Positions 1 through 48,045 of a stretch of DNA of 64,000 nt are shown piece by piece. The stretch is from positions 1-64,000 of the forward strand of contig CAUYUJ010000243.1 in NCBI GenBank assembly GCA_963575745.1, read 5' to 3'. The stretch's first letter is position 1. The number at the start of each line of letters is the position of its first letter. The notes under the pieces were generated by a model, which saw nothing but the letters and a program-made list of their open reading frames with translations, had not been told where the DNA came from and made no database searches. This DNA is from Prorocentrum cordatum (taxonomy: Eukaryota). Position numbers and translations under genes: made by a program.

Positions 1-900
1 TAACTTCCGACGAGCTTAAAGGAGTCGACCACGCGTAAGGGCCGTTCCGCCAGAGTGAGCTGGGTAACGGCTGTGTGAAGCTCGTCGGTGAGCGCCCACC
101 CCGCCACTTTGCCAGGATGAATGCGTTGACCAGAAAATCGATCAAACTTGGCGGTTTCATCAAGAGATTTCTGCAACTCAGGCGCGGTATGGGTAGTGGA
201 GTTGCTGTCGTCCACGAAGGTAGTGCTAAGTGATCGCGGAACGTATCGATGCTGTCTCTTGGTCCACACACACATGAGCAGCTTAATGTCGTCCAGGGAC
301 CAAGAGCTTCCCTGGAGGTGCCCGTTAGTCCTGGCCAGTTCCTTAGAGTACGCACCGTTCATGCGGATGAAGCGTTTGTGGCGCCTGTAGAAGTTTCTGC
401 GGACAGTAACGATGTCTTGGGGACACCCCGCGTGAAGCGCAAGGTTAAGACAGATGTCCGTGATGAGGTAGTCGAAACACTTCTGTCGGTCCAGGGCAGC
501 TCCAGCTAAGGGAAGGAGTAAGGCCCTGGCGTGTTCGATGCGCAGGGCAAGAGAGGTGCTGACGTCCCCAATGGTAGCTTTGGGGACAGCGCCAAAACTC
601 GTGGCGTGGGTCCATCCTTTCCGCCAGTCCGTGAGGCTGCGGTAAGCTGGCGCTTCCCACGCATACATCCAAACGGAAAGCACCGAGAGAAGTAGTTGGT
701 CCGTTGGGAGTTCGCCTCGGCCTTTTCGGAGGCACGGGTTTGGCACGTGGAGGAGGGGCTCTGGGATGGTGCCAGTGCGTTGCATAGCGCGTAGGACGCT
801 GGCGAAGAGGCGAAGAATGTCGTCGGGTAACTCCTTAGCCTCCTTAGTAGTCCAGCCGTCCAGTCCCCCCGCGCGGCGCGGTGAACGGGTGCGAATGAAG
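1..900 (-). pseudogene. Non-LTR reverse transcriptase domain, frameshifted and truncated by the window edge
   Basis: Manual translation gives AGGLDGWTTKEAKELP, CLRKGRGELPTDQLLLSVLSVW, RTNGHLQGSSWS, TTFVDDS (FVDD at 207-218) and FSGQRIHPGK. A stop and a frameshift occur near 506. Confidence 0.9.
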
Positions 901-2029
901 TGGATGAGTTGGTCGTCAGTAAGGTGGAAAAGGGGTAGCTGGTGCTGGCGTAGGCAGCTCCTGTCGGTACTCGTCGTAGAAGTCGGCCCACGTCGGCATG
1001 GCTTCGGCGTCATGTCCCGCACGTGCACGGTACCTGCCCAAGATGGGCTCCCAGGTGTCGACCATGAGCTTCAGCATGTCCTTGGTGTTAGCAACAATGG
1101 CGTTGGCAGGGAGGATGTCGGGGACTTGCGCAGGTGGTGGTTCACGAGTGTGGTCTTTGTCGCTGTCCGTGTCGGGCGAACTACCGTCGCTGGGGCTGAA
1201 GCCGCCAGCTTCGGTGTCAGCGTCGCTGTCGTCCGTGCTAGCTTCGTCAGGTTTAAAGGCGTTGGTGTCGCAGTGGAGTTGCGTATCGTCAGGTGTGGTA
1301 GGCGTGCGAAGATACGCCGTGGGCGAGCTGTCAGCAGCCCGTGCGTATATGGCCGCCTTTCGCCCGCTTGGCTCACGGACGCCCTCAGCCCATATCCTGA
1401 TGCGTTCAGCTTTGGCACGGTTCGCGCGTCGCGCCAGCTCCAAGTCGAGGTGTTGGATCAAAACGTCAAGGTGCTCTCCGTGAGGCACTGGCTCGTCGGG
1501 GGTCCAGGCCTCGGGGACGTCTAGGAGAACCGTGGGGCGTAGCTTGTGGCATAAGAGGCGGGCCGCGGTCCACGTGCAGTCGATGCGCTGCGCGAGGTAC
1601 GGCGGGATAGCACGGCAATCCAAATGATGTGCTGTCCGATGAAACGGAGCTCACAGAGTTGCCGATGGAGCTTGCGCAGTCGGTTCATGTGTATCGTGGA
1701 AGCTCCGTAGGTGGGGAAGGCGCGGGGGACAACTGGTCGATCTTCGAACGTGGGCGTGAGCCCGTGCATGGTGGGGGGCTTCTGTTTTGGGTGGTCGGGC
1801 GGTGGAGGTGGCAGGTCGCGCAGACGGGTGAGATGGCACTCATGACTGGCCTCGTTAGCCAGGGCGAACATGCGCTCCACGTCGTCGCGTGTGTCGGCCT
1901 GTTCCATGCGGTCCTGATATCGCCCAGCGACGAGGGTCCCTAGTGCCTGCAGCTCGTGACCCTCATGAGCTCCATCGTCGGGAGGGTAGGGCGTGGGGGG
2001 CAAGAAGACGTCGGGCCGTATGGTCGAGG

Positions 2030-2870
2030 CGACTGAGGTCAAGCGTGACCTGCAGGCCAACATGAGACTTCGCTGGCAAGTCGCGAAGGTAACAGAAGTC
2101 GGCGACAAGGGATCGCGCCGCTTGGTTGGCAATGATATAATCGATGCGCGAAGTACGGGGGCACTTGGTGACGCGGTCCCAGTCAGGGATATTGCCGTAT
2201 GTGTGCATGGTGTGGTCTGGTGTGCCCTCAGCAACGTTGAACCATCCGTGCTGCAACATGTGCAGAAGGTGTGGGTTGTCGTCAATGTTCGTATTGGCGT
2301 CCATGCAGATGAAGTAGGGGGCTGCGCCGACCCTCGCGGCGGCGCAGTCAGCGAGCCGAAAAAGAGCTGTGCTGTCTCCTCCAGCAATCCCGTAGAGGCT
2401 CGCTATGTAGATCCCCGCGGGCCCGTGGTTGTTTCGTCGCCGCCTGCGGCGGTGTTGAGTGCAGAGCGGGAGAAAAACCTCGTGCCATCTTTTCTTGGCC
2501 TTGAGGGCGACGATACAGGGCGCATTGTCGTCGACAGTGAAGTCGACAATGGCATCCTTAGAGAGGATGGCGACCCCTCCCGAGGCGCCAGTGTTGCCCA
2601 CGACGGTGTGGTCTGTGACGCCGTGGGCAGCTCTGCGCTGGGCTCGCGCCAGATCTAGGTCAGGTCCAAGACTGGCGTGGTATCCTCCGTGGAGTGGATT
2701 GGCGGCGCTGGTAGCGATGGCTTGCCTAGTCGGCTTGGCATGTCGGGTCTCCTGCAGTGCTATGACTGCGGCGTTGTGGTCGACACCAAGGGCGGTGATG
2801 GTTGGCCAATTCGCTGAGAGACTGGTGATGTAAGGCTGACGAGGTGTATGGAGCGACCTGGCCCGTCTCC
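2030..2870 (-). pseudogene. APE-like (exonuclease/endonuclease/phosphatase) domain of the LINE
   Basis: Motifs VIALQETRH, SGGVAILSK, IASLYG, FICMDAN, TSRIDYIIAN and KSHVGLQVTL match the conserved APE blocks (QE, GGV, xDxN, RIDY, xH). Confidence 0.88.
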
Positions 2871-3088
2871 ATCGGTGGAACTGGGGTTTGCACGCCCCGC
2901 GCGGTGAAGGTCAGCCTGACCCTCGCCCAGGTAGGAGGCTTGGCCACAGTAGGAGCTCATGGCGTTCCTATGGATTAGCTTGACCGGGGCTGAAGCCGCC
3001 GCCAGGCCAGAAGTATAGGCGGGACACGGTCGGCACTGCGCCAGGGGGGGTTCATAAACGTCAGTGAAAATGTCACGAAAAATCCTCC

Positions 3089-5130
3089 TCACTCCAGTAC
3101 TGTAGGGGACGAGGGGAGGAGAGGTGAGACGGCAGCAGAGGGAGAAGGAGGCGACTCCTCGATCCGTCCTGCCGAACACAGAAACACAAGCGAACCAGCG
3201 GCGGCGGCTAGGCGCGGCGGCGGCACAACGCACGCGCATGTACTGCGCACGCGACACCGCTGGTCCCTCCTGCGGTGGCGCGCCCGCCCCGTCAGTATCT
3301 TGATGAGCAGCATCTGTGGAACGGCTCCAGCAGCACGGTCGGAGGCCTGGCGCTGGGCCTCGTCCATGCCCGCTGCCGTGAGGCCCACGTTGCGGACAGG
3401 GCTGATTCCCCGCGGGGCCGCCGCTGCCGCGGCAGCAGCTGAGGTGGCGGGGGCTCCGCCCCGACTCTGAGGTGAGAGCGGTGAGCCACCGCCGAAACCC
3501 GCAACAAGGTTCTTGACACGGTACTTGTTCTTGAACGGGTCGAAGGTTGGCGCCTCGTCGATGGGGACGATCACGCGGGTGGGCAGCGGCGGCTCGTGGT
3601 CCGTGGACGGCGTCGGCACGAGGTCGACCTGGCCAGGTTCGATGACGCTGGCTCCGAAGCGTGGCACCACTTCGGGGGCTCGGCCATCAGCCTGAGTCTC
3701 GCGAGGCGGCGAGCTCTTGGAGCTCCCTGGGGCCTTGCGTGAACTGTGGCGGCTGCAGGTCCTGCTGCGCGGGACGCGCCCGCCCGTGTGGCGGTCGCGT
3801 GGCGAGGTCGCCTGGGCATTAGCGCGCTCGGAATCCGCCCTGCTCGGGGATCGGATCGGCGCCGCGCAGGGTGATGGGCTGGGCTGGCGAGAGGCGCTTA
3901 TGCCGCCCTCCTCCGTGGCTGTGGCCTGGTCGGGGTCGACAGCGTCGGGGCGGGGGCTGACGTGGTGGGCGCTTCCCTCGCTGTGCCGCGGGGAGGCGCT
4001 GTGATGCGCCTGGATGTGCGTGAGGACGAGCGGGGTAAGCGGCTGCCTCTCCCGCTCAGGTGGGGCAGGTTTGGCCTGGGCAGGGCGCAGTGCTGCAGCC
4101 ACGTTTGGCGGGGGCGTGTGCTGGCGCGGTTGCCAAGCGCGCACGTTCGCATCACGCCATCCTTCGGGGCGCCCAGCCCTGCCACGGTTTGTTGCAGCCC
4201 CCTGGGCTGAAGCCGCAGGGGTTATCACTGCGGGCTGGTTGCTGGAGGTGCCATTATGTCGGCCTGAGTAAAGGCCCCAGGCGCGCGTGGACCCTGGCAC
4301 TGGCGAGGTGGCCCTTGGGAGGGCCTGCACGGGTGCACGCGGGTAGCCGATGACCGCTGGGTGTACCCTGGCGTGGGGGGCGTGGCCGTAGCTGGAGGCG
4401 GCTACTCCAGCAGCCGCGGGCCTGGCACCTATGGGGCCACGGTAGTAGGCGGCAACCCCGTCGTAGGCCGTGTTACCGCCTGTCGGGACTCGCGCGGGGG
4501 AGCGGAAGCGTGGCGTGCCGTGCTGTCCTGCGTCACGTTGGTCCCGCTGCTGGATGCGCTGCTGGTGCTGTTGGCGACGCTGCCAGTCGGCTCTCGAGAG
4601 GGGACGGGTGTCGGGGAGGATGGTGGCCACGTCGGGCCGCTGCCAGCCCCGATAGACGTGCTCGAAGGCGTGGTCAGGGTAGGTCCCCCCTACGGGTGAG
4701 TATCGCCGCACATGCTCAATGTAGTCGATGTTCTGCGGCTCGGAGATCGCCGTGATGTTGACGGCTCGCTGGTGCGCTGGTCCATAGAGGCAGAAACTAC
4801 CTCGGTTGCTGCGGTCGTGGTTTAGCTCGGCTTCGGTCGTGGCACGGCTCACCATGGCGTCGCAGAGTCGCATGTCGTAGTCGAGGGCTTGAGGCCCAGG
4901 ACCACCCTCGGCGTCCCAGTACAGTACCACATCTCGCCAGCGGGTGCGGGTGGTGTGGATGCGCTCGGCGATCGACTCGCAGACGGTCCTGACCGTGACA
5001 CGATCCCTGTACATCTTGGTGATGGCTAGGGAGTAGGGTCGGCGGACCGTCTTGTTGAAGGTGAATTCCTCCTTGAGGGCCTGGTGGGGACTGAAGAGCA
5101 CGTAGCCTTCCCTCCAGAGCGGTTGGTCGG
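3089..5130 (-). CDS. Hypothetical LINE-internal ORF (~670 aa, mostly low complexity); probably the frameshifted continuation of ORF 9906-5026
   Basis: Long open frame overlapping the end of the 1626-aa ORF. The N-terminal ~150 aa look globular; the rest is Pro/Ala/Arg-rich. Confidence 0.5.
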
Positions 5131-8100
5131 GGGAAGGTTCTTCGGGAATCCAGGTGGCCGCCTTGTGCCGTCAGGCAGTCCCTGCCTGGGGACGCGCCGC
5201 GGCTGCGGAGGGAGGTACCATTGACCCTGGTAGCCTGCTTGCCCTGGTTGTGGAGGTTCCCCCCCGGGGCCTGAAGGCGCTCGGGGGGGTTCCTTAAGGT
5301 CGTGGAGGGCTGGCGCGTTGCCGAATTGGCGGGCAAGGATGTGCGGCGGCATCCCTGTGGCACGGACGTCGAGCAGGTTGTGTGGCCTGGGGGGATGGAG
5401 GCACCTGCTGGACAGGCAGCATGTGTCGGAGTCCCTGTTGTTGGTGCTGTATGCACACGTCCAACTGTTGCACGAGTAGTCCGTTGACCAGTCCATGAGT
5501 GTACGCAGTCCGCTGCGGCCGCAGTCTGGGCATGTTGGTTGGCCCGAGGTGCCGAGCTGCGTGTTGCGGCGGGCGGCACAGTACTGACAGCATTGGAATC
5601 GACACTGCAGGCAAGACCAGCGTCCTGGTAAAGGCGGGAGCGCATGCTCATTTGTGCCTGGGTCGTCTGGGTGGGGTCTCGGGCGATCCCACAAGGGCCA
5701 GACGTCAGCAAACCAGGATTGGCCTGTAGTGCGGACAACCTCGGCGGGAAGGCGTGCGTCCTCGGCGTGGCCCCTGATCCACTGGGGCCCCATGTCCGCT
5801 GGTACCATGACGGTGCGCCAGGTGTCGTCCGCTTTGACGTGGACTTGGGTCGGTGCCCAGAGCTTAGTAGTGGTGTCGCCGTGGTCGTGGTGGAGGATGA
5901 CCCAGCCGTCCCGCCCATCCACCGCAGAGTCAATAACGCGGTGGCCCATGACTGTCGTCCCCCACGGTAAGTAAGCTCCATCGTGGTGATCACCAGGGTC
6001 GAGCCAGACCTCGATGCCAGGGGCATTGACACGGGACCGCACATCACGGACATGGTAGGCGAGGACGTGGTAGGCAGTCGGCTCCTCTTCCGTCACAATG
6101 TGCTCCCACGTCTCGATGCCACTGTTGTCTGAGGTGGAGTTCCCGTCACTCTGTCGTGACGAGCGAGAGGCAGATCGTCGTGGACGAGCACGGCCTCGGG
6201 CGAGGGCGGCGGCCGCGCTGATGAGGGAAGGCGTACGGCGTTCGTCGGCTCCAGATGTCGTCGATGAGCGGTCTGGACTGTGCGCCAGGGCTGTGCCTAA
6301 CCTGTACGTGCGTGGTGGGCCCGACGCGGCCCCAGGGCTGGAGCCGCTGGGGCGCGACCCGCGTGCGTCAGGGTGCCCCCGCACGGGGACAGCTTGCAAG
6401 CCAGTGTACACCAGGTCGATGAGTGGTTTCGGGTCCAACTGGAGCATGTGAAGCGAGACACGTGGGCGGGGCTGGTTAGGGTCATCCCTGGTGGCTGCTT
6501 CCGTGTCGTAGTGCTGTTTGGCCCATACTCGCGCTGCCTCTGGCGAGTATAGCGCCTGCGGTGGTGGCCATGCTGCCGCGATGGCTGGTCTGCGCCTGTT
6601 GCTAGCTTCCTGGTCGTGAGCTTCAGCCGCCTCACGGAGATCAGGATGATCGTAACCAGCGATGTGGAGGGCGTGCGCGCAGTCGCCCATGCCATAGGCG
6701 TGTGGAAGGGCACGGCACCTGGAAGCAGCTTCTGTGGGGGCACACCAGTCCATGCGGATGAGGAGGCTCAGGACCCGAGGGTAAATGAGGCGCGCTCCGT
6801 GGGCCTCCCCTTTCACGTAGTTGTGCCTGTTTTCCCCGCGCGGTGGTTGGGAGGCCTCGCACATCCAGAGTGCGATGGGTCCCCACGCGAGGGTGTCGTC
6901 TTCAAGACTGTAAGGCGGGTGTGGCGGCATTGCGTACCACGCGGCCAGCGAAGGGTGCACGCTCGCGTACGTGCGGCCAACGTTGGTGCCAGTTCGGCCC
7001 TTCGCTTCACGGCGGGGACCTGGCAAGAGGTGCCCTCCACTGGCAGCAAGACGGGCCGCAAGGTCGCCGCGGGTCCCATGCCAGAAGACAGTGGGCGCGT
7101 CGGTGGTGGGTTGGCGGAGGTCCCACGTGAGGTATGGGAAGATTGTCTCGCCTGAGTTCCCGCCCGAGTCTTCCAGCACCCAAGTGAGGCGGTTCGGTGG
7201 CCTCTGCATGATGTCCGTCCACGGCCCCAGCGCTTGGAGTGTTGGATCATGAGTAAATCGAGGATGGTCGTGGAGTCGCAGAGCGTCTTTGATGTCCTCT
7301 GTAGACACGCCACTGTTGCCTAGCGCAAAACCGTTTTGATACAGGGCATTAAGTATGCTCTTCGGCGGCACGGGGACCGCTGGGTCGCGCTGGATGGTGT
7401 TGCGTAAGTTGCGTGTCGGTGGCTTGAGGGCAGTGTAAGGCATACCAGGGCCTGAAGGCGCCTGGGGCCTGTCGGGTGATGCATAGCGTGCTCGCCGTCG
7501 TGGTGGTTGGGTGTCCGCGTCGGGGGAGGAACCACGGGCGTCAACATGTCGGAAGATAGACCACGGGCTATCGTGGGTGCGCTCACGCGTTTCCCTTGCC
7601 TCGGTGTCGCTGCCGTGTGCTGTGGCATCCTCGTTAGTCGGTAGGTTACCGAATGTCGCTCCGCTCTTGGAGCCGTCTCGTGGAGACGGGCTGGTCGATC
7701 TTGGTGTGACAGACGAAGCTCGCGACACGGCGGCAGTGACTTCGACGATGGCGGCGGTGGTGGCGGTAGTGACATCGGCGACTGCGGCGGCAACTGCTGC
7801 GGCGTAGTGTTCCTGTAGCAGCGGATGTCGGAGTGCGTGCACATGCTGGTCGTCGTGTTCGTCGGCGAGCGTGCACGGCATTTTGTATGTGGCCTCGTCC
7901 CGCGGCCTCCTGCTCGGTTGGCAACAGCGGAGGCACCACTGGGCTGTGGATGAGTCCAGGGCCCGCGCACAGATGCGGGCTCCTACGTGTCCAACAGCTC
8001 CCTGGGCAAGAAGTTTGGCACCGACGAGTAGAAGCCCACACACGACTCCACCTGTGGCAATAGCCCCTAGCTTGCCGCTGGCCCATTTCAGGACACCCCC

Positions 8101-9906
8101 GAGGCCGACCCCGACTGCAGTGGCTCCGCCCGAGACGCTATCTCTGAGTTTGACGCTGGTCCATTTGAGAGTGGCCCACAATGTGGACGTGACATTGTAT
8201 GTCGTTTTGCGTCGGGATGTGGTGGACACCGATGGGACTGGTGCCGTCGCTTTGCGTCGTCGTCGTTGTCGGTAGCTGGGGTCTCGGCTCGGTGTCGGCA
8301 AGTACCCATCGATCTGGTCCTTGTACGGCATTGCTATCGCGATGGCGTACGTGGCCACAAAGAGGCAGATGAGGCAGCCACAATGTCGTGATGCCGCTGC
8401 GCTGTGCTGGGGCTCGTGGGAACCGCTGGCATCTGGGTACTCATCATCGATGGGGTCGTTGTCGATGTCGGCCTGCCAGTGGCCAATGACACTGGGGTTG
8501 GGGTCAGTCACGTTGTCACGGTGTACGGAGGTGAAGGGCGTGGTGCTGCCACCTGCGGTCTGGGGATGTCCAGGTCTAGCCAGTGGTGCAGCGGGGCTGA
8601 AGCCGCCACTGCACTGGCTGGCATGAGCTGGCGATGCAGTGGAATGGCTTGTCGCGTCAGCGGCAGTGACGCCTTCAGCGTCGTTGAGCTGTGCGCTGGG
8701 GTCGGCCTGAGCTGAGTTGTGGGGCGGACTGCTGTGCAACGAGGTGTGCCCAAAGTAGGGTTCACTGTCGCGGTCACGCTGGGCCGAGTCGCCTGGTGGT
8801 GTCGTGCCGTCTCGATCCTGGGTATCGATGCCGTCCTGGCTATCGTCCGACGCGTGGAACGAGTCCATGGATATGTTGCCGATATCGCTGGCCGCGATGT
8901 GCTGTAGCAGCCATGATACGGGATCATCTGCGGCCTGATCGGTGCCGTCCATCGGCGCCGCGGCGAGCTCCGCCTCGACGAGCGGCAGCATGTCTGGCGG
9001 TTGGTGCAGAATCACGTCGGCGAGGTACGCCATGGCGTCTTGGTCGGGTGGAGGGAGGCCTCTTGGCAGCAGAGCATGGGCCCGTGAGAGGTATGGCGGC
9101 AAAGGTGCCGTGAAAGCCTCAGGACCGACGAGCGTGGCACGAGCGCCCTGGTATTCCAGAAGGAGGCCAAAGTAGCGGGTGGCGTACTCGCGGCTGCTCT
9201 GGATACGAGTGAGGTTGCGGTTGATGCGCTGCCTGTCGGGGCCCGCTCTGTGCCAGATGTCCTCGCACATGTCGACCGCAGTGCGCTGACGCAGGGTGTC
9301 GGTAGTGTCCTCGGACTCCTCCTGGAAGAGGTGATCGTACTGTGGCAGATGAAGCGTCGCCAGGATGTACGGGACGCAGTCCTCGAGCCATGCCCAGAAC
9401 ATGTCCTGGTTGTCCTCACCTGGTGCCCACGCCCCCGCACACGGTATGAGCCGGGCGCGGATCGTCATCAGGTGCCAGAAAGCAGGGTCCTCCTCGGGTT
9501 CGCCCCTATCACACAGGGGAGTGGTGAGACCCGTAGGGCAATAGCGGGGCACAACAGCGGGGCTGAAGCCGCCACTGTGTGCCTGGCCTATGCCGCACGG
9601 ACCCGCGGCAACGGTGCCGTTCACGATCGAGTCCAAAATGGTGCAGTGATCGTACTTGTAGATGCTGTCATCGTAGAGGTAGAAAAGGGTCCCACGTTCA
9701 GCGTGTCGCAGGAGAATCTCACCTCCATGCTGGGGCGCACCGCCTGAAGACGGGTGTGCTCCAGCGAGCGAGGGGAGGGCCAGGCTGCAGGCAAGGCGCC
9801 ACATGATGGCGAGGCCTGGCGGGCGGCGCGAGCGATGAGCCAAAAGCTGCATGTCAGCACGCATCCTCAGATACCCCTGCATGCTCATGTACATTGCAAC
9901 AAACAC
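5026..9906 (-). CDS. 1626-aa multidomain ORF: signal-like N-terminus, hydrophobic segments, ADP-ribosyltransferase (PARP-like) domain, Cys-rich Zn-binding cluster
   Basis: TVFWHGT (HGT at 7072-7080)...GRTYASVHPSLAAWYA...ALWMCE...NYV...IYPRVLSLL. Cys cluster WSCLQCRFQCCQYC..CPDC..CNSWTC..CCLSSRC at ~5390-5620. Hydrophobic runs CLICLFVATYAIAIAM and GGVVCGLLLVGAKLL. Confidence 0.7.
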   Translation of the reverse strand: MFVAMYMSMQGYLRMRADMQLLAHRSRRPPGLAIMWRLACSLALPSLAGAHPSSGGAPQHGGEILLRHAERGTLFYLYDDSIYKYDHCTILDSIVNGTVAAGPCGIGQAHSGGFSPAVVPRYCPTGLTTPLCDRGEPEEDPAFWHLMTIRARLIPCAGAWAPGEDNQDMFWAWLEDCVPYILATLHLPQYDHLFQEESEDTTDTLRQRTAVDMCEDIWHRAGPDRQRINRNLTRIQSSREYATRYFGLLLEYQGARATLVGPEAFTAPLPPYLSRAHALLPRGLPPPDQDAMAYLADVILHQPPDMLPLVEAELAAAPMDGTDQAADDPVSWLLQHIAASDIGNISMDSFHASDDSQDGIDTQDRDGTTPPGDSAQRDRDSEPYFGHTSLHSSPPHNSAQADPSAQLNDAEGVTAADATSHSTASPAHASQCSGGFSPAAPLARPGHPQTAGGSTTPFTSVHRDNVTDPNPSVIGHWQADIDNDPIDDEYPDASGSHEPQHSAAASRHCGCLICLFVATYAIAIAMPYKDQIDGYLPTPSRDPSYRQRRRRKATAPVPSVSTTSRRKTTYNVTSTLWATLKWTSVKLRDSVSGGATAVGVGLGGVLKWASGKLGAIATGGVVCGLLLVGAKLLAQGAVGHVGARICARALDSSTAQWCLRCCQPSRRPRDEATYKMPCTLADEHDDQHVHALRHPLLQEHYAAAVAAAVADVTTATTAAIVEVTAAVSRASSVTPRSTSPSPRDGSKSGATFGNLPTNEDATAHGSDTEARETRERTHDSPWSIFRHVDARGSSPDADTQPPRRRARYASPDRPQAPSGPGMPYTALKPPTRNLRNTIQRDPAVPVPPKSILNALYQNGFALGNSGVSTEDIKDALRLHDHPRFTHDPTLQALGPWTDIMQRPPNRLTWVLEDSGGNSGETIFPYLTWDLRQPTTDAPTVFWHGTRGDLAARLAASGGHLLPGPRREAKGRTGTNVGRTYASVHPSLAAWYAMPPHPPYSLEDDTLAWGPIALWMCEASQPPRGENRHNYVKGEAHGARLIYPRVLSLLIRMDWCAPTEAASRCRALPHAYGMGDCAHALHIAGYDHPDLREAAEAHDQEASNRRRPAIAAAWPPPQALYSPEAARVWAKQHYDTEAATRDDPNQPRPRVSLHMLQLDPKPLIDLVYTGLQAVPVRGHPDARGSRPSGSSPGAASGPPRTYRLGTALAHSPDRSSTTSGADERRTPSLISAAAALARGRARPRRSASRSSRQSDGNSTSDNSGIETWEHIVTEEEPTAYHVLAYHVRDVRSRVNAPGIEVWLDPGDHHDGAYLPWGTTVMGHRVIDSAVDGRDGWVILHHDHGDTTTKLWAPTQVHVKADDTWRTVMVPADMGPQWIRGHAEDARLPAEVVRTTGQSWFADVWPLWDRPRPHPDDPGTNEHALPPLPGRWSCLQCRFQCCQYCAARRNTQLGTSGQPTCPDCGRSGLRTLMDWSTDYSCNSWTCAYSTNNRDSDTCCLSSRCLHPPRPHNLLDVRATGMPPHILARQFGNAPALHDLKEPPRAPSGPGGEPPQPGQAGYQGQWYLPPQPRRVPRQGLPDGTRRPPGFPKNLPPTNRSGGKATCSSVPTRPSRRNSPSTRRSADPTP

Positions 9907-10065
9907 ACCCCCAGCAAGATGACAGGTGTCCCTACACCAGATAGCTTGCTCGTGCTGCTGCCAAAACTGACATGATATGACAAGAAAGAGATACGACGCG
10001 AAGAGAGAAGAGATGCCTCTGAAGGCGCTTCCTCGGAGGGCTGAGGCAGGCTCTCTGAGGCACCT

Positions 10066-12636
10066 TCAATAGGGTTCCTGAGTGGCCCGACCCTTGTCTT
10101 TGCCTTTGTCAGCCCCTGGGGGCCCCGTCCCTGGGGTGACCTGGCCTGGTTGGTCAATCCACCCGCAGACAGCCACGGGGTCGGCAACTGATGCAGCTTC
10201 CTCCTTTTTTGTTTCGAGGGTGGCCACCTGAGGCAGGTGGATGGTGCCCCCCGTGAGGTGCCCGAGGAGGGCCTGGATGTCGCCACGCAGTGCAGCAGCT
10301 TCGGTAGTTGCCGTCTGTTGCTGAGTGACGACGGTGGCGAGCCCTCGTTCCAAGCCTGAAACGTGCTCCGTGAGTGTGGCCTGGGATGAGAGAACGCCCG
10401 CAAGCTGAACCTGCATGTTATCCACCGTGTTGGCAAGCAGCTCGTGCTGTTGTTCCATGTGTTGGATGCGGGTCGTGGCGGCATCTGACAGTTTAGGGGC
10501 CGTTGCGAAGCGTTCGCCGAGGGTGTTCAGTTCGCGAGATGCCACGCTGAATTCATCCCCTGATGAGAGGATCTCAACGTCGTCAGCGTCGCCTGGTACC
10601 TCGGCGGCTGTGGCAGCGTCCCCTTCCGTGTGGCCCCCGCCTTCAGCCGCCACCGTGCCAAGTTGCGGGTCATGACCACCTGGTCCTTGGACGGCCGTCT
10701 GCTCGGCAGCTCCATCCGTGCCGTGCGGGGGTGCAGAGGAGCTGCGGCCTGGGGCGCCGTGTGATCTTGCGTGCGGCGTGGCGTCGCGTTTCCCACTGGA
10801 GGATCGGTGGCGCTTGGCTAGAGGCTCCTCCTTGGGGATCGGGAGCGGTGCGACGCCCTTGCCTTTGGGCGTGGCAGTCATGAGGTCATGGAGGTAAGGG
10901 CTCTGGGCCGCTTTGGTTAGGAGTGTGCCCGTGGCGGGGCTGAAGCCGCCACCACGGGCTGGCGGCGTCACAGGCTCTGTGATAGTGGTAGGGGTGACAA
11001 TGGTAACGTTGTCCCTCTTCGGCACCACCTCAGCCAACGGGGCCTCGGTGATGCTCCACGGGATGGGGCACCCTGCGACCTGTACCGTATATGTGGGTGG
11101 GGGACGATGGGCGCGCACTAAGGCAAACTGAGCCGAAGTGGCTGGGTCCCAGGCGGTGTGGTAGACCTCACAGTCCCATTTGACGGACGGGCCCGTGAGA
11201 GTCTTAGCAAGCTGGGTCAGCGTGGCGTGGCGTGCCGCAATGCCAGTGATGCGGTATCGCGTCTTGGCGAGGGTGGCTTCACAGCCACGGATGCTGACGG
11301 CAGCAGCCTTGGCGGCGTCTGACCCTCGTGCAACACGGATCCCCAATAAGCCTGACTTGCCGTGCCTGACGACTCCTAGGGCCTTGAAGTCCACCGACTT
11401 CTGGAACGCATCTGCCATCGTGATGGGCTGGTCCTCAGGGAACCACACGGTCTGGTACTTGTCTGCAGTGGGCTCGTCTGCACCTACGTTGCTGAGGTCG
11501 TAGGTGGCGCCGAGTTGCCCTGAACCCGCCAAGACCTTGTCAACCGCTTGAAGACTGACGCCGAAGGTGGCAGCCAGGGACCTCTTTCCGACGCCCGATC
11601 CGTACCTGCCTAGGCTTTTGCAGGGTTCGAGGATGGTGACGGCTTTAAAGTTGCCGTGGAAGAGGGCCTTGAAGGTGTCCTGGAGCTGACTATCGAGCTC
11701 CTGGCGGCGAGCGTCTTTCTTGGACTCCCTGTGCTTTTGGTTTTGGCGCGCCTTGTCCTGTGGAGCGGAGTCCCCTCGGAAAGGACCCTTGGCGCGTGGA
11801 CCACCGTTCACGGGGGCACCTCCCGAGAACTGATCCTCGAAAGCCTGATGCATGGAGGGGACTGCGGCGATGGCTTCGGTTTCATGTATGGTCACCCGAA
11901 TCCAGCATACGTGGTCGGCAGGATCGATGGTGGCGACGGCTACTTTTTCCGTGCAGGCGACTTCCTTGGTGCCCAGCTGGTACACGGTCACGGGGACGTG
12001 CGTGTGGACCACTTTGGGCGCCTTGGGGTGACGCTTCAGCACGGGGACGGCGAGCTCGGTACCGACGTAGTTATCGTTTTTTGGGCCCATGACAGCAATC
12101 GCAAGCTGACCCGTGGTACGCTTACCCTGCTCGAGGTGGTGCTGCAGCAGCCGTTCACCGCTCTCGTAGTCGTGGAGGCTGATACTGGGCTTGTACGTCT
12201 TGCCGTCGTCAAGTGATGTGGGTTCGGCCAGGACTGGGACCTTCCAGAAGGCCGGGTCCAAGGCAATGAATTGGGCGTCCGCAGCCTGAAGACGTGCGGA
12301 CGCAGCTGGTGGGTGTGATGTGTCACCACCAATGCGCTTAGGCTTGCTGCGCTGGTGGTGATCCAGCGTGTAGCTGATCTGGTTGGCGGCACACATGCGG
12401 ATCAAGGCACTGCCGAGCTTCTTGGTGTTGGTCTTGTGCATGTCGTACGTGGCCTGCAGCTCGTCCGCGTTCAGCTCGGCGAGCCCGTTGTATGCGGCCG
12501 TGGGGCGGTCAGACCCCGCTTGCTTGAAAGCTGCAATGCAGTCCTGCTTGCGTTGGAGGAGGGACCCTTCAGCTGCAGGACGTGAGCTCGGCGGCTGCTT
12601 GGAAGAGCGACGGCGCTCCGGCTTGCCGGGGGCCAT
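10066..12636 (-). CDS. ORF1-like protein of the LINE (856 aa; globular middle, coiled-coil-like C-terminal part)
   Basis: Uninterrupted ATG-started ORF ~150 bp from the element's 5' end. Heptad-like stretch TRIQHMEQQHELLANTVDNMQVQLAGVL...LRGDIQALL. ORF1 role is inferred from position. Confidence 0.65.
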   Translation of the reverse strand: MAPGKPERRRSSKQPPSSRPAAEGSLLQRKQDCIAAFKQAGSDRPTAAYNGLAELNADELQATYDMHKTNTKKLGSALIRMCAANQISYTLDHHQRSKPKRIGGDTSHPPAASARLQAADAQFIALDPAFWKVPVLAEPTSLDDGKTYKPSISLHDYESGERLLQHHLEQGKRTTGQLAIAVMGPKNDNYVGTELAVPVLKRHPKAPKVVHTHVPVTVYQLGTKEVACTEKVAVATIDPADHVCWIRVTIHETEAIAAVPSMHQAFEDQFSGGAPVNGGPRAKGPFRGDSAPQDKARQNQKHRESKKDARRQELDSQLQDTFKALFHGNFKAVTILEPCKSLGRYGSGVGKRSLAATFGVSLQAVDKVLAGSGQLGATYDLSNVGADEPTADKYQTVWFPEDQPITMADAFQKSVDFKALGVVRHGKSGLLGIRVARGSDAAKAAAVSIRGCEATLAKTRYRITGIAARHATLTQLAKTLTGPSVKWDCEVYHTAWDPATSAQFALVRAHRPPPTYTVQVAGCPIPWSITEAPLAEVVPKRDNVTIVTPTTITEPVTPPARGGGFSPATGTLLTKAAQSPYLHDLMTATPKGKGVAPLPIPKEEPLAKRHRSSSGKRDATPHARSHGAPGRSSSAPPHGTDGAAEQTAVQGPGGHDPQLGTVAAEGGGHTEGDAATAAEVPGDADDVEILSSGDEFSVASRELNTLGERFATAPKLSDAATTRIQHMEQQHELLANTVDNMQVQLAGVLSSQATLTEHVSGLERGLATVVTQQQTATTEAAALRGDIQALLGHLTGGTIHLPQVATLETKKEEAASVADPVAVCGWIDQPGQVTPGTGPPGADKGKDKGRATQEPY

Positions 12637-12790
12637 TGCGGCGGGCGCTCTGGTGGGGAGAGAGGTGACGCGAATCAGTAGGGTCCTGCTGGGACCCCTC
12701 CGGTCTCGCGAGGCCTGGGAGTCTGACTCCGAGGCGGGGCGCTTCGCGTCGCGGCTGCGGTCTGAGTGCAGGGCACTCTCGAGCCGAGAC

Positions 12791-12859
<69 letters not shown>

Positions 12860-12877
12860 GAGAGAGAGAGAGAGAGC

Positions 12878-12913
<36 letters not shown>

Positions 12914-12938
12914 GCGAGAGAGAGAGAGAGAGAGTGAG

Positions 12939-12984
<46 letters not shown>

Positions 12985-13085
12985 CGAGAGGAGAGAGCGA
13001 CAGAGAGCGAGAGAGAGCAAGAGAGAGCGAGAGAGCGAAAGAGAGAGAGAGAGAGAGATATAGAGAGAGAGAGAGAGAGAGAGAT

Positions 13086-13137
<52 letters not shown>

Positions 13138-13151
13138 CGAGAGAGGGGGGG

Positions 13152-13182
<31 letters not shown>

Positions 13183-13234
13183 GAGAGTGAGAGAGAAGAG
13201 AAGAGAGAGAGGAGTGAGAGAGAGGGATGAGATT

Positions 13235-13290
<56 letters not shown>

Positions 13291-13303
13291 GGTGAGAGAG
13301 GGG

Positions 13304-13360
<57 letters not shown>

Positions 13361-13363
13361 GAG

Positions 13364-13397
<34 letters not shown>

Positions 13398-13400
13398 CGA
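12791..13400. repeat. (GA)n microsatellite, imperfect, ~600 bp, followed by (GGA)n
   Basis: Directly visible. Confidence 0.98.
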
Positions 13401-13506
13401 GGTGGAGGGGGGCGAGGAGGGGGGCCAGCGGGAGGAGGAGGAGGAGGAGGGGGAGGGGGAGGGGGAGAAGGAGGAGGGAGAGAAGGGGGAAGGGTGTCAC
13501 TGCCAC

Positions 13507-14389
13507 CTGGTCAATGCCGACACCCGCCCGGCACGTTCTTGCGCCAGGCCAGTCGCATTTTCCAGCACGCACCCCCATGATCCTCCGCAGCGCATCAATA
13601 TAATAATCCACTGGGCGATTCTGACGAAGACAAAGGATCGGTCATCCGCAAAACCTGAGTGCGCTCCAGTCCCCGCCCATGGCGGGCACGGTGGCCCTGT
13701 GACCAGAAGGTCTACTGGGCGCTCCAGGTTCTCGAAGGGCATCTGAGCGAGGTCGCCCGCCTGGGGGGGTTGGGGCGCGCGTCGGGAGAATGCAGGCAGC
13801 GCCCCGCAATTCCGGATAAGAGTGAGGACGCGGGTGGGCGAGCGCGGCGCCTGCGAACCATTTGCGACCCACCCGCTTCGCGACCCGCCCGCGACCCATC
13901 GGCCCCGCGAGGGGCCCGAAAGCCCGCGGGGGCCCCAGAAGCAAAAGGGAGGAGGGATGGTACATTTTCGGTCGGAGGGAAGGGCCCAACACGTGGCCCC
14001 ATGACGGTTCCAAGAGGCCCCCAGGACGGATCCTTCAGCCACCCACCCAGGGACATTGGAAGACCGTTCAGCCCCTCATTCTGATAACCGAACCATTTTT
14101 TTTTGGGGGGGGCACGGCCAGGCACCTCCCGGCCAAGGTGGAGCTCGCCCTCGATCGAAAACTGTCTGAGCCAGCTTCCGCACCCCTCCTCCAGATCCCA
14201 GCAATTGTTGTAACTGCTGGGGATGCCCAGCGCCTCTAAACACACGCCGCACCCGTTGATTCCGACGCAGGGGCTTGCGACGCGGAGGCGCCTGCCCAAA
14301 TTCGGTACCCAGCCAGCGAGGCCGCGAAGATCCCACGGCCTAGGTGTGGCCGCGGCTTCTCCCTCGGCTTGTCGCCTCCAGTCCGCCAT
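13507..14389 (-). CDS. C5-cytosine DNA methyltransferase (Dcm/DNMT-like), N-terminal half; exons 14389-14126 and 13760-~13507
   Basis: Motif I-like LRVASPCVGING, then CWD. A GT..AG|G intron at 14125-13761 joins HLGRE|AGDL in frame. Motif IV VDLLVTGPPCPPW (Cys codon 13686-13688), DDRS, motif VI-like VLENATG. Motifs VIII-X are not found in the window. Confidence 0.85.
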
Positions 14390-14842
14390 TGATGCCCGCC
14401 GAGCCGGGCCAGTCGGACTCTTGGGCAGCACGGCCACTGAGGTGATGGGGGCGAGCCTCCCGTCGAATCGTTCGGGCCCCATCCACGCAGCGCTCCTCGG
14501 ATCACCGCTCGAAGTCGCGAGCCGCTCAGCCTTTGGAGGGCCGAGCGTCTCCGAATGGGGAAGCACGAATTGGCCGCAGGGCGTGGGGGCCGAACGACTC
14601 GGAGAGGGTTCCGAACGACGTGCGAGGCGAAGTAGGGCTTCTCGGGACCTCAAGGGGGCCACGACGCGGCTCCTACAGGACCGTTGATGGTGTTGATGTT
14701 GCTTGGTTTGCTGTTCTGGGGGGGGTGCGCCCCCCCTGAGAGGCGTAAAAACATTTGTTGTTTTGACCTCGCTCACCTCCCTCTCTCCAGAAAGCGGAGT
14801 CACCGCCACGCAGGTGGCCGATCAGAGGCGCTGAAGGGGGAG

Positions 14843-15050
14843 GTACGGTGCAGGTACGGTGTAGGTACGGTGTAGGTACGGTGTAGGTACGGTGTAGGTA
14901 CGGTGTAGGTACGGGGTAGGTACGGGGGAGGTACGGTGTAGGTACGGGGTAGGTACGGTGTAGGTACGGTGTAGGTACGGTGTAGGTACGGGGTAGGTAC
15001 GGGGGAGGTACGGTGTAGGTACGGGGGAGGTACGGGGGAGGTACGGGGGA
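14843..15050. repeat. 11-bp tandem repeat (GTACGGTGTAG / GTACGGGGGAG)n
   Basis: About 18 units directly visible. Confidence 0.95.
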
Positions 15051-15592
15051 GGTGTGGGGGAGGTTTTTTTTTTGGGACAGTGCTTTGGATTTCCACCCCG
15101 AATCTTACATAGAATTTTTGAAACACCCCAAGAATCCACCATGATTTTGTTTCCGCGGTCGGCGGGCGGCGATGCGGAGGCGAGGGAGCGGTGCTAGCCG
15201 ATCATGAGGAGGAGGAGGAGGAGGAGGAGGAGGAGGAGGCCCTCCCCCTCCCCAATCCCGCCCGCACCTCCCTGGCGGACAAGAGCACCAACACCGTCGG
15301 GCTCCAGAAACTGGCTTTCGCCACGCCGCCGAGCGAAGGGAAGTGTTGGGAGGTACTGAAGAGGGGGTGGGCTTCGCCCCTCCGGGGAGAGGAGGAGGAG
15401 GAGTAGGAGTAGGAGGAGGAGGAGGAGGAGGAGGAGGAGGAGGAGGAGGAGGAGGATCTTCCAGGCTAGCTGGCTACAGCGCGGGGGCAACGCCACCCGC
15501 CGCGTTTCTTCCTCAGGGCGCGCGCGAGCTATGACCACCGCGCATAGCTCTAGAAGCCTAGAGGTCCAAGACAGTTTCAATCGTCAGTCGCC

Positions 15593-16746
15593 TCAGTCAG
15601 CCTTGTGCTCCTCCACGAGGCTCAAGATGCGGGCAGCGATCGCCTCCGCGCGCTCGATCGTCTCGTCGACGGTGTTCGTCAGCTCGGCCATATCGTTCTT
15701 GGAGACCTGGCTGCAAGCCTTGATCTTCTCAACGTTGCCCTGCAGGGAGGTCATCTCGGCCTCAACCTTGGTGAGCTTCGTGAAGAAGTGGCCCGGGACG
15801 GCACCCGCAGCGTCGGGCGCTTTACCTCTCGCCAGGGCCTCTGCGACGTTCACCTTGCACTGCCCGATCCTCTGCTTGAGCGACTCGAGCTTCTTCTTCA
15901 CGGGCCCAGTGAGGGCTTTCTTCGCCGAGGCCTTGCCCCCGTCGCCGTCGACCTCCTTCTTTTTGGGCGCCTTCTTCGACTTGATGTCCACCTCGGCCTT
16001 GCGCTTGCGGATGCTGTCGCGGACGCGCCCGTTCTCCTGCGCGTCTTTGTGCTCTGGGATCTGCGGCATGTCGACGCCGCGCACGGCGCAGTGAATCATC
16101 TTGGCGTTTTTTTTGTATAAAAAATGTTCTCCCACTGAGTTGGCTTGTTCTTGTACTTCTCTTCCGCCTCGTCGTAGTCAATGCACGCGCCGCCCTGCGC
16201 GGTCTTCACGACGACCCGAGTAGTCTCAGCCTGCTGGACGGTCTCTTGGATCGTCTTCATGAGGTCGGCGCCGAAAGCGGCGCGCGCGTCGCGCATGAAA
16301 CCAACGCGCTCGTCGGGAGTCAGGATGTCGAGCTCGCTGGCCGCGCCGAGGCGCTGGATGCGGCTCTTCAAGCGGTTGCAACTCGTGCACCGAAACTGGC
16401 CCCTGCCATTCTGCACGCGGCTGCACTGCCCCTGAGGGGCGTCCAACTTGCACGAGCAGCAGGTCTGGATGCCGAGCGACGGGTGCTCGGTCAGTGCCTT
16501 GCTGGAAAACGAAAATAGGCAGGGCCTTCGATGATGGGCTGCCCATCAGGTTTTCACGTGCCAGGCTACTGTGGTCTCTCCTCCTCCTCCTCCTCCTCCT
16601 CCTCCTCCTCCTCCACATGTTCCTTTCGCGCCTCGTGGCTCTTCCATCCCCCCATCCCCCGCGTCCTCTCACGTTGACTGCCCGGCCACCTCAACGGCCG
16701 CCTGCACCGCCCTGCCGCCCGACGATACCTGCTCCACGCCCGCCAT
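15593..16746 (-). pseudogene. Hypothetical protein with N-terminal CxxC...CxxC Zn ribbon, Lys-rich NLS-like patch and helical C-terminus; frameshift in an A/T homopolymer near 16110
   Basis: Predicted exon 16746-16690 (MAGVEQ..AVE), GT..AG|G intron 16689-16498, then exon ALTEH..CCSCKLD..FRCTSCNRLKSRI..EEKYKNKPTQWENI. The frame then switches to NAKMIHCAVRGVD..RKRKAEVDIKSKKAPKKK. Confidence 0.6.
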
Positions 16747-34866: not shown

Positions 34867-36098
34867 TCACGAGACTGTCGTCTTCGTCGCGAGCACGAGG
34901 AAGTTCACTGGATCGTTCGAGGTGGAAACCGCATCGACGAACCCCAGCTTCTGCAACTCCTCACCAACATTAAGAGCATAATACTCGCCGTCTTTGCACC
35001 GCGGCTCCGTCACTTGGAAGGCCCAGCGGCGGAATGGTGGCAGCTCCAGCAGCCTCATCGGGTCGACATCCAACACCGCAATCACCCCACCTGGCGCGAG
35101 CACCCGGCATGCTTCCCTGAGAGCCTCGACGCTGACCTCGCGAGGAAGTGCAAGAGGAAGTTGAACGTCACCACGTCAAACAGTCCACTCTCAAACCCTG
35201 TGGCCTCCGCGAGGCCGTGGGTAAACTCCAGATTTGGGTACGTGCTCTTTGCCGTGGCCAGATAGTAAGGGCCCAGGTCGAGCCCCGTGGCCCGAACGCT
35301 CGGAAACGTGTCCGCCATCTGCCGCGTCGAGAAGCCGCCGCTGCAGCCTACGTCGAGGAGCCTCGTGGGCGGCGGTGCCGAAACTGCTTCCGCCACGCCC
35401 TGTGCCTGCCGCCGCCTGTCCGCGATTGCCGCGCGAGCGGAGCCGCGGAACCTCTCCTGTGCCTCCTCCCACGTCGTCTCGGCCTGGTAATAGCCGAGGC
35501 GCATCGATTGCGTGGCGGCCTCCAGCTCGCGCGCGGCCTTCCAGCTGAGGTTGCCGTCGTCGTAGCCGTGGAAAGGCTGGGTGTAGTAGGCCGGGCACTG
35601 CAGGTCGGGATCGCGCACCTGCTCGAACAGGCGGTCCAGCTCCGCCTGGCGACTGCTCATCAGCTGCACGCTCTCAGCCCACTGGATACCGCGATCCTCC
35701 GCTCGCTTGATGAACCAGCTGCGCGCTGCGTCCTTCGCGATTGAGGAGAGGAGCTCCCAGGGCTTAACGTCGAGCTTCAGGCCAACATCTTGTGCCATCT
35801 GCACCACTTTCCCAGGATTCGCCTCGGACCGGTCCGTGGCGTTCGCCATGGCATGCGCCTCCATCTCCGCGCGGGGTGCCAGTCGCATGCGCGTTCGCCG
35901 CGTGCGCGGCCGCGCGATGCTGGCGGCGGCGCGCGCCGCCGCACCGAGCAGCACCGCGGGCGCGGCCGGCGGCTTCTCGCGGTGGGCGCCATGCGCAGCG
36001 GCCTGCGCGGGGGGCGGCCCTGCGCGCTGCGACCGCGCCAGGGCAGACGGCCGCGCGGCGGCGAACGCCGCGGACGCGGGGGAGCCAAAGGCCGCCAT
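34867..36098 (-). pseudogene. Frameshifted copy of the SAM-dependent methyltransferase retrogene
   Basis: 1232 nt versus 1236 nt in the intact copy; net 4-nt deletion near 35145 (LLHELP lost). Substitutions include Y>C, W>R and C>R. Confidence 0.93.
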
Positions 36099-36198
36099 CC
36101 GCGGCGGGAGTTGGCCGGCAAGGAGGCAGCGCGGCGAAGGGGGGGGGCCGGGTCGAGCGGGAAGGACGGCGGGGGTCTCCCGGGCCAGGTAGCGCGAA

Positions 36199-36235
36199 CT
36201 GGAGCCAAAATGGCTCGAGCCAAAATGGCTACGGA
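36199..36235 (-). other. Spliced leader (1 mismatch) plus relic SL, copy 1
   Basis: TCCGTAGCCATTTTGGCTCGAG (36235-36214) followed by CCATTTTGGCTCCAG (36213-36199). Confidence 0.93.
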
Positions 36236-36729
36236 CCCCATCTTGGGTTCCTCTTGGGCCCCTTTGGGGACCCGTTTGGGCTGTCTTGGGCGTTCCTTGG
36301 AGCGTCTTGGGGCCCTCTTGGGCCGTCTTGGGGCCCTCTGGAGCACCTCTTCGGCGGTCTTGGGACGGTCTCGGGAGCCTCTGAGGTCGTCAAGAACGGT
36401 ACGACAGCGAAAACAATCAATATGCTTGCAGCGGCCTGTGGGCGTCTCGGGTCTCTCTTGGAGCGTCTTCGGGCTCTCTTGGCGCTTTCTGGTGGCGCCT
36501 TGTGGGCCTCTGGGGCCGCCCAAGCGCCTGCATACCCACATTTGTGGTAGAGGTCGCGGCCCCAGGGGCCCTGGCCCTGGTCCGCCACTATATGTATACA
36601 AGTGTGAAGAGAGAGGGAGGGAGAGGGAGAGGGGGAGAGGGCAAGCTAGGTGCGCGCGCGTCATATCTGACGTCCTACCCCTCCCTCCCATCCCTTACCA
36701 TGGCGCTGATTTTTTCTATCCGCGGACTA

Positions 36730-40971: not shown

Positions 40972-41072
40972 CCGCGGCGGGAGTTGGCCGGCAAGGAGGC
41001 AGCGCGGCGAAGGGGGGGGGGCTGGGTCGAGCGGGAAGGACGGCAGGGGTCTCCCGGGCCAGGTAGCGCGAA

Positions 41073-41109
41073 CTGGAGCCAAAATGGCTTGAGCCAAAAT
41101 GGCTACGGA
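41073..41109 (-). other. Complete dinoflagellate spliced leader plus relic SL, copy 2
   Basis: TCCGTAGCCATTTTGGCTCAAG (41109-41088, exact) followed by CCATTTTGGCTCCAG (41087-41073), ~100 nt upstream of the ATG. Confidence 0.97.
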
Positions 41110-41462
41110 CCCCATCTTGGGTTCCTCTTGGGCCCCTTTGGGGGCCCGTTTGGGCCGTCTTGGGCGCTTCTTGGACCGTCTTGGGGCCCTCTTGGGCCGT
41201 CTTGGGGCCCTCTGGAACACCTCTTCGGCGGTATTGGGACGGTCTTTGGAGCCTCTGAGGTCGTCAAGAACGGTACGACAACGAAAACAATCAATATGCT
41301 TGCAGCGGCCTGTGGGCGTCTCGGGTCTCACTTGGAGCGTCTTCGGGCTCTCTTGGCGCTTTCTGGTGGCGCCTTGTGGGCCTCTGGGGCCGCCCAAGCG
41401 CATGCATACCCACATTTGTGGTAGAGGTCGCGGCCCCAGGGGCCCTGGCCCTGGTCCGCCAT

Positions 41463-41530
<68 letters not shown>

Positions 41531-47894: not shown

Positions 47895-48045
47895 CCTGGG
47901 GCACACAAATAAATAGGCACAAATCCCAGGATTCCCAACATTTTTCCACATGTTCTGGGTTTTCGTCTCCCCCCCAATTCACACATTTTCCATATTTTCC
48001 CCGGGGTCGACGATTACTTGTGCTTGTGTTTTTCCCCTCCTGAAT
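47895..48045. repeat. Dispersed repeat; related pieces at 46028-46087 + 47314-47407, ~54834-54885 and ~55590-55658
   Basis: Shared CACACAAATAAA..ACAAATCCCAGG and CATATTTTC..GG..TCGA..ATT..TGTG..GTGTTT..CCCTCCTGA. Confidence 0.75.

Follow-up and report, generated by a model that had tools for sequence, protein, structure and literature searches.

Long interspersed nuclear elements (LINEs) are usually regarded as borrowing almost everything from the host, their own contribution being limited to an endonuclease, a reverse transcriptase (RT), and the nucleic acid-binding product of a first open reading frame (ORF1). The accessory domains known from the second frame (ORF2) of these elements are RNase H, PHD, and esterase domains. 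On the host side, PARP1, PARP2, PARP3, and PARP4 are poly- or mono-ADP-ribosyltransferases (ARTs) of the H-Y-E class that are activated by DNA breaks, and the active mono-ART members of the PARP family do without the glutamate. PARP-like host proteins are found among the factors that restrain L1, and both TASOR (HUSH) and PARP13/ZAP act against it. These two, together with RCD1/SRO, are pseudo-PARPs, which are defined by the loss of the histidine and the tyrosine of the NAD+ pocket. According to one review, host PARP1 and PARP2, along with RPA, promote the retrotransposition and integration of human L1, with the proposal that they protect the new cDNA (PMC10760644). In this report, we describe a LINE at the beginning of a 64,000-nucleotide stretch of DNA from Prorocentrum cordatum (contig CAUYUJ010000243.1, positions 1 to 64,000, referred to here as the window), in which a long ORF preceding the endonuclease and RT encodes a domain that very probably adopts the PARP-like ART fold.

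We propose that this PARP-like domain is an integral and selected part of ORF2 of a high-copy LINE of the apurinic-like endonuclease (APE) type in a planktonic eukaryote, and that it would act as a mono-ART in cis. Taken as a whole, the proposal is in our judgment moderately probable. We are highly confident that the domain is integral to the LINE; genuine transferase activity, to which we give slightly less than even odds, is the more tentative part.

The arrangement resembles that of L1-like LINEs of the APE type, in that ORF1 is followed on the same strand by an ORF2 with the APE before the RT, and in that the copies are numerous and many are broken. It differs from them in the length of ORF2, which is most likely well over 3,000 amino acids (aa), with approximately 2,300 aa before the APE that hold the PARP-like domain as well as a Cys-rich stretch and two hydrophobic ones. 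We rate the PARP-like domain as a new accessory domain for LINEs. An earlier reading made from the DNA letters alone (the sequence-only reading) knew of no such architecture, and no description of an ART or PARP domain in a non-long-terminal-repeat retrotransposon was found in the searchable full-text literature, a scope that excludes most subscription journals and the Repbase reports. ARTs, PARPs, and retroelements are mentioned without being linked in an excerpt of PMC3417536.

Among the cellular enzymes, the ART domains of PARP10, PARP14, PARP15, and PARP16 (PF00644) are the best structural matches. They share with the LINE domain a His in the first strand, a Tyr in the strand after it, another Tyr 11 residues further on, and a Tyr-Pro pair that opens the last strand. 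They also lack a Glu at the third catalytic position, which we take to be a feature of their family, and the LINE domain appears to be like them in this respect. They differ from it in sequence (approximately 12-15% identity, with the LINE domain below the Pfam gathering score) and in context, a cellular protein as opposed to a LINE ORF2; the LINE domain also has conserved motifs of its own, namely PGPRRE, CEA, HxA[RK]LIYPR, and GDC. The catalytic domains of PARP1, PARP2, PARP3, and PARP4 gave the best Foldseek matches, with Z-scores of 6.0-6.5 in the VIA-align search and the re-alignment described below, and the first two are those functionally linked to L1 in the review cited above. Unlike these enzymes, the LINE protein has no helical regulatory domain that could be recognized, apparently no conserved catalytic Glu, and no WGR or zinc-finger break sensors detectable by Pfam. 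TASOR and PARP13/ZAP are alike in having a PARP-like fold without the Glu, as the LINE domain appears to have. Unlike them, the domain described here is encoded by the element rather than by the host, and it retains the His and both Tyr residues (H943, Y980, and Y991), so that the definition of a pseudo-PARP does not apply to it.

Predicted fold of the domain

The domain is located within P0001, an ORF of 1626 aa on the minus strand (5026..9906) that most likely corresponds to the 5' part of a single giant ORF2 in other copies. The modelled PARP-like region comprises residues 848-1130 of P0001 (6517..7365, minus strand). Within it, the ART core (residues 941-1049; 6760..7086, minus strand) extends from FWHGT, which begins at residue 941 (7084-7086), to IYPRVLSLL at residues 1041-1049 (6760-6786), and all of the strings that the sequence-only reading had quoted from the 1626-aa ORF were located in P0001. 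The core residues of interest, all on the minus strand, are H943 (7078-7080), Y980 (6967-6969), Y991 (6934-6936), E1017 (6856-6858), and N1029 (6820-6822).

The structure of the 283-residue region was predicted with AlphaFold2 using alignment A2, which has 21 rows with 29-98% identity to the window. The model has a predicted local distance difference test score (pLDDT) of 74.4 and a predicted template modelling score of 0.74, with the strands that carry the motifs at 73-89. When this model was compared with the PDB using Foldseek, the listed ranks 1-47 were all PARP ART domains (PARP4, PARP2, PARP10, PARP1, and PARP3). The best among the matches listed was PARP4 (8swy_A; E 7.2e-5, probability 1.00), PARP2 was found at 5.9e-4, and ten matches had E <= 0.001. 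In a search of 48,161 representative chains with VIA-align, which is independent of Foldseek, the top 16 were all members of the PARP family (Z 5.5-6.6). The first was PARP10 (3hkv_A; Z 6.6, rmsd 4.6, 135 residues aligned), and the order thereafter was PARP16, PARP4, PARP13, PARP1, PARP3, PARP15, PARP2, wheat SRO1, the tankyrases, and RCD1. The next 15 rows were mostly other ART folds, including an exotoxin-A-like toxin, the TASOR pseudo-PARP, toxins of the diphtheria, pertussis, and cholix types, and Arr. Chains of the tRNA 2'-phosphotransferase (Tpt1/KptA) were found below the PARPs at Z 3.4-3.5, as was the entry 9ld3_A at Z 5.2. Re-alignment of the best 1000 Foldseek chains again placed PARP10 first (9rls_A; Z 7.1, rmsd 3.8 Å, 134 of 189 residues), with PARP16 (Z 6.9) and PARP15 (Z 6.8) also among the best matches and 360 chains at Z >= 5. 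The ART fold that the sequence-only reading had predicted from motifs was thus the one recovered by each of these comparisons.

Signals of the PARP family were also found in the sequences of the relatives. The Pfam PARP profile (PF00644; gathering score 26.7 bits) gave sub-threshold matches to three of the 21: P0034 (19.6 bits, E 7.1e-4), P0012 (16.9 bits), and P0025 (10.6 bits). In P0034, residues 127-182 are matched to profile positions 50-102 of 199, the segment from the His to the Tyr. The ESM Atlas associated the domain of the window with PARP clusters at 0.87, which is taken as a lead only, and P0034 at 0.95; for the latter, 16 of the 30 matches were PARP clusters, and one cluster points to the PARPs of haptophytes. 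A search of alignment A4 against NCBIfam returned nothing relevant.

Several results count against a PARP-like fold. The model was built on 21 mostly fragmentary sequences, and a model predicted from the single sequence was unusable (pLDDT 35.8). The TM-scores from Foldseek are low (0.22-0.36), and Z-scores of 6.6-7.1 are within the middling range of the tool. PF00644 remained below its gathering score in all of the relatives and did not match the domain of the window itself, and searches of the PDB chains by sequence (phmmer with the domain and profiles of A2 and A4) gave no matches. On this basis, one could argue that the PARP match is an artefact of a model derived from a shallow alignment and that the true fold is another or a new one; Z-scores below 8, TM-scores near 0.3, rmsd values of 3.8-4.6 Å, the missing PDB sequence matches, and the poor single-sequence model are all in keeping with that view. 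We nevertheless consider an artefact very unlikely. PARPs were returned by Foldseek, by VIA-align, by the sub-threshold Pfam matches on the His-Tyr segment, and by the ESM features of two members that are only 38% identical, and the order His-Tyr-Tyr-YP with 11 residues between the two Tyr residues fits the motifs and spacing that we take to be those of PARP catalytic domains. With scores that are only middling, the case for the PARP-like fold therefore rests on the uniform identity of the matches and on their agreement with the other lines of evidence, not on the height of the scores.

Conservation and active-site residues

The relatives of the domain were collected with phmmer, using residues 840-1626 of P0001 as the query against 1.84 billion representative sequences. 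This search gave 30 matches, 18 of them at E <= 1e-10, and 12 relatives were obtained from a profile search. The ten relatives that were looked up belong to single-member or small clusters, and nine of them come from ENA metagenome contigs alone (682-5,309 bases). The tenth, P0031, is in a cluster that also has NCBI members and resides on a contig of 16,356 bases; it is a weak match (E 3.6e-5) and looks unrelated. The profile search added a fragment, 98% identical, that is filed under a metagenome-assembled genome (MAG) of Myxococcales, and, from EukProt, two short fragments that carry the label Pyramimonas sp. and are 93% and 85% identical, a weak hint as to the organism, to which the haptophyte cluster of the ESM Atlas gives a different answer.

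The PARP-like motifs of the domain run from a His (H-G-T-R) through a first Tyr (R-T-Y-A-S) and a second one (A-A-W-Y-A) to the Tyr-Pro pair that opens the last strand. Conservation in alignment A2 is given as the number of rows out of those that cover each column. The strand with the HGT motif has W942 in 11/14, H943 in 13/14 (with one Gln), G944 in 13/14, and R946 in 14/14. Both G963 and R966 of the PGPRRE stretch are invariant (14/14 each), as are Y980 (13/13) and A988 (15/15), and Y991 is found in 14/15. Further downstream are E1017 (16/17), V1031 (13/16), H1036 (14/16), L1040 (16/17), P1043 (15/16), and D1075 (16/16). The ART-like motifs noted in the sequence-only reading are thus conserved beyond chance. 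Based on the motif order, H943, Y980, and Y991 would line the nicotinamide pocket.

One relative was found as DNA, L001, a contig of 1,423 bases that is 96.5% identical to positions 8043-6621 of the window and aligns with it free of gaps. There are 50 differences between the two, 39 of which fall on third codon positions; by codon, 39 are synonymous and 10 non-synonymous. For this single pair, the ratio of non-synonymous to synonymous differences per site (pN/pS) is 0.088 over residues 622-1095 of P0001. Within residues 905-1055, which contain the ART core, there are 10 synonymous and 4 non-synonymous changes (pN/pS 0.13; one-sided binomial p 3e-4), again from the one pair. In addition, 10 of the best 13 variant places listed inside P0001 are at third codon positions. 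As judged from these sequence comparisons, the domain represents a protein family that is conserved and under apparent purifying selection.

The contig L001 is filed in the Myxococcales MAG even though it matches a eukaryotic repeat, and an error of binning is the most likely reason. This MAG contains nothing else of the element, and PF00644 had no match in the MAG or in 14 control genomes.

The sequence-only reading had proposed that the usual catalytic Glu is replaced by the Asn of an NYV motif. The aligned ranges end with residues 1007-1008 of PARP10 opposite residues 207-208 of the model and with residue 1011 of PARP1 opposite residue 210. Using the residue numbers that we take for the Glu of PARP1 and the Ile of PARP10, and allowing for a longer loop, this position would correspond to about residues 1028-1031 of P0001; the estimate comes from arithmetic on the ranges, not from a superposition. 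The location suggested for NYV is therefore plausible, and the Asn itself is not a feature of the family because the N1029 column varies (Asn in 3 of 16 rows). Y1030 of the window is Val in L001. Of the acidic residues nearby, E1025 is confined to the closer relatives (7/16), and the nearly invariant E1017 (of the CEA motif) is on the preceding strand. E1017 was considered as the catalytic Glu and set aside, since the secondary structure of the model places it one strand before the one expected from what we take to be the PARP topology. The domain is best described as H-Y-variable, and it looks like the H-Y-hydrophobic mono-ART PARPs or could be inactive, because there is no conserved acidic residue at the position expected for the catalytic Glu.

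If the domain were catalytically dead, it might act by binding alone, for instance of ADP-ribose, NAD+, or a host factor, or it might mimic or block a PARP-like restriction factor of the host. Such an interpretation draws on the third position, where none of Glu, Asp, or Gln is conserved and where columns 1028-1030 vary and are never acidic in the 16 rows of A2. It also draws on the sub-threshold Pfam matches and on the structural comparisons, in which the inactive PARP13 (4x52_A; Z 6.4), SRO1 (Z 5.7), RCD1 (Z 5.6), and TASOR (Z 4.8) are within 1-2 Z units of the best match. It is opposed by the retention, under purifying selection, of the His (13/14) and the two Tyr residues (13/13 and 14/15), which the known pseudo-PARPs have presumably lost, and by the active mono-ART PARPs, which presumably also lack the Glu. 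We regard a dead domain as rather unlikely.

The repeat unit and its reading frames

Contigs from four public runs were aligned on positions 1-16000 of the window, and the runs X1 and X2 (organisms A and B) covered them best. There were 67,911 contig pieces from X1 and 5,267 from X2, with many variant letters and indels. The summed contig depth, which the tool itself warns is not a copy number, ranged over approximately 4,400-14,800 across all bins up to position 12,816 in these two runs and was 0-271 beyond. In the bins covering the domain (6409-7476) it was approximately 7,700-10,600, equal to the level of the APE and RT. An (AG)n microsatellite at 12792..13401 (610 bases; Tandem Repeats Finder, period 2, 308 copies), which adjoins the 5' end of the element and is part of the flank, had a depth of 0 and was masked as a repeat. 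The stretch from 1 to approximately 12,790 is a dispersed, multi-copy sequence with hundreds of times the depth of the flank in the runs of two organisms. The ORF1-like frame, P0001 with its PARP-like domain, P0003, the APE, and the RT therefore belong to a single unit that is highly repeated and whose 5' edge is near 12,790.

This unit is an APE-type LINE with its 3' end outside of the window, past its start. The assignment is made because an APE above the Pfam cut-off, together with RT motifs and a sub-threshold RVT_1 match, is located on the same strand and 3' of an ORF1-like ORF, and the LINE identity given by the sequence-only reading is upheld. The APE, at 1966..2910 on the minus strand, scores 30.9 bits with Exo_endo_phos (E 3e-7), above the cut-off of 24.5. 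The putative, partial RT (3..1070, minus strand) runs past the start of the window and is interrupted by that start and by a frameshift. Its frame matches RVT_1 over profile positions 70-192 at 14.7 bits (E 0.025), below the cut-off of 29.6, and a KCFD-type motif, QG, and FVDD, patterns that we take to be RT-like, were recognized by eye. Neither the RT frame nor the APE frame had a match in a sequence search of the PDB. The ORF1-like ORF, P0002 (856 aa; 10066..12636, minus strand), was identified from the ORF list and its translation, and its depth is as high as that of the rest of the element. P0001 is continued by P0003, a frame of 670 aa (3089..5101, minus strand) with a conserved N-terminal part followed by a low-complexity stretch. 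Further open frames are present downstream at 2763-3686, 1524-2402, and 919-1650. There was no Pfam family for P0001, P0002, or P0003. The sequence-only reading had placed the domain between ORF1 and the APE and RT within the 1626-aa ORF. The ORF with the domain is indeed situated between the ORF1-like ORF and the APE and RT, the latter two being found in other downstream frames, outside of the 1626-aa ORF in this copy.

The frame of this copy is switched at 928, 1628, 1995, 2830/2832, and 3315 by five 1-base indels, some of which are in homopolymer runs and others not. At all five sites, other copies have 1-base indels with the sign that joins the frames, as determined by arithmetic on the frame phases. 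The frame-joining indel accounts for widely differing shares of the depth, as little as 2-4% in X1 and X2 at 928 and as much as 100% at some sites in X9, and broken variants like that of the window are therefore common themselves. Relative to other copies, 16 bases are missing at 5146..5152 (minus strand), where contigs from X1, X2, and X9 have loose ends at 5146 and 5151; two short direct repeats apparently border the gap. This deletion splits P0001 from P0003, and the 16 extra bases of the other copies shift the frame of P0001 into that of P0003. P0004, a metagenome relative of 580 aa that is 58% identical, passes from the last part of P0001 into the first part of P0003 within one frame, and P0034 keeps the domain along with downstream parts. 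Because other copies have the joining indels and the 16 bases, and because P0004 reads through the junction, intact copies most likely encode ORF2 as a single frame that exceeds 3,000 aa by a wide margin, in which approximately 1,300 aa separate the domain from the APE that follows it.

It may be asked whether the ORF with the domain is instead a host gene or part of a different element that adjoins a decayed LINE, or whether it represents a one-off capture. In this copy, its frame differs from those of the APE and RT, which are themselves broken by frameshifts. No long contig of another copy was found that joins the domain to the APE and RT, so that the evidence for their linkage elsewhere is indirect. 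The small share of frame-joining indels at 928 also counts against our proposal. This explanation has to contend with a depth that is evenly high over ORF1, the domain, and the RT and falls at the 5' boundary, with the frame-joining indels and the 16 bases of other copies, with P0004 spanning the junction of P0001 and P0003, and with the contig joints, none of which bypasses the domain among the four listed. We judge it to be extremely unlikely. The earlier proposal that the element encodes its own ART-like domain, as an integral part and not as a one-off insertion, is the one favoured by the depth over the domain and by the joints.

Searches for the DNA of other copies gave none among metagenome contigs (with the A3 profile and with the single protein) or viral contigs, and only L001 among genome contigs. 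No longer protein holding the domain was found by a region search or by a profile search for longer lengths, both of which are weak negatives, and there was no tblastn match in a phage collection. Parts of the stretch encoding P0001 (5026-9906) are present in 20 public runs that belong to 15 studies and cover, among others, metagenomes of marine, estuary, freshwater, and urban origin, which suggests a wide distribution of the host or of the element family. No RNA run is among those listed.

Two other parts of P0001 may be mentioned. Residues 509-528 (8323-8382) and 614-642 (7981-8067), both on the minus strand, are strongly hydrophobic, with Kyte-Doolittle means of approximately 2.0-2.1 over 19 residues, and P0043 is similar by eye in the matching region. 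These stretches could be membrane helices, which would be unusual inside a LINE ORF2. Residues 1432-1463 (5518-5613, minus strand) are rich in Cys with paired CxxC motifs, the same being found in the relative P0004, and this segment looks like a zinc finger, though there is no Pfam match.

The window is GC-rich throughout (approximately 0.56-0.79 per 2-kb interval), with a peak of 0.786 at 48001-50000, where long open frames are found on both strands. An 11-base tandem array of approximately 20 copies is located at 14836-15064. Class I methyltransferase domains are encoded by two minus-strand ORFs, at 35085-36389 (Methyltransf_25, E 2.6e-11) and 39739-41550 (Methyltransf_11, E 2e-17), which may be paralogous host genes.

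Proposed function of the domain

In the mechanism that we propose, the domain would bind NAD+ and transfer single ADP-ribose units, as expected for an enzyme of the H-Y-hydrophobic kind such as PARP10, PARP14, PARP15, or PARP16. It would act in cis, on the particle or protein of the element itself, on host factors, or on the nucleic acid ends at the APE nick during target-primed reverse transcription. The domain would thereby provide an ADP-ribose signal that, in the case of human L1, comes from host PARP1 and PARP2. A more specific version, in which the LINE has taken the PARP step in-house and an active mono-ART marks the nicked DNA, its own protein, or host repair and silencing factors, is speculative and, as formulated, on the unlikely side. 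If it were true, the element would draw in repair factors or evade restriction with no need to wait for the PARP1 and PARP2 of the host.

This copy carries an intact domain, and direct expression and assay of the protein are therefore possible. A PARP-like domain that is encoded by a LINE, is under apparent purifying selection, and belongs to a unit with a hundreds-fold excess of depth would constitute a natural experiment on ADP-ribosylation in target-primed reverse transcription. If the proposal is correct, a new enzyme class would be added to the repertoire of accessory domains of retrotransposons.

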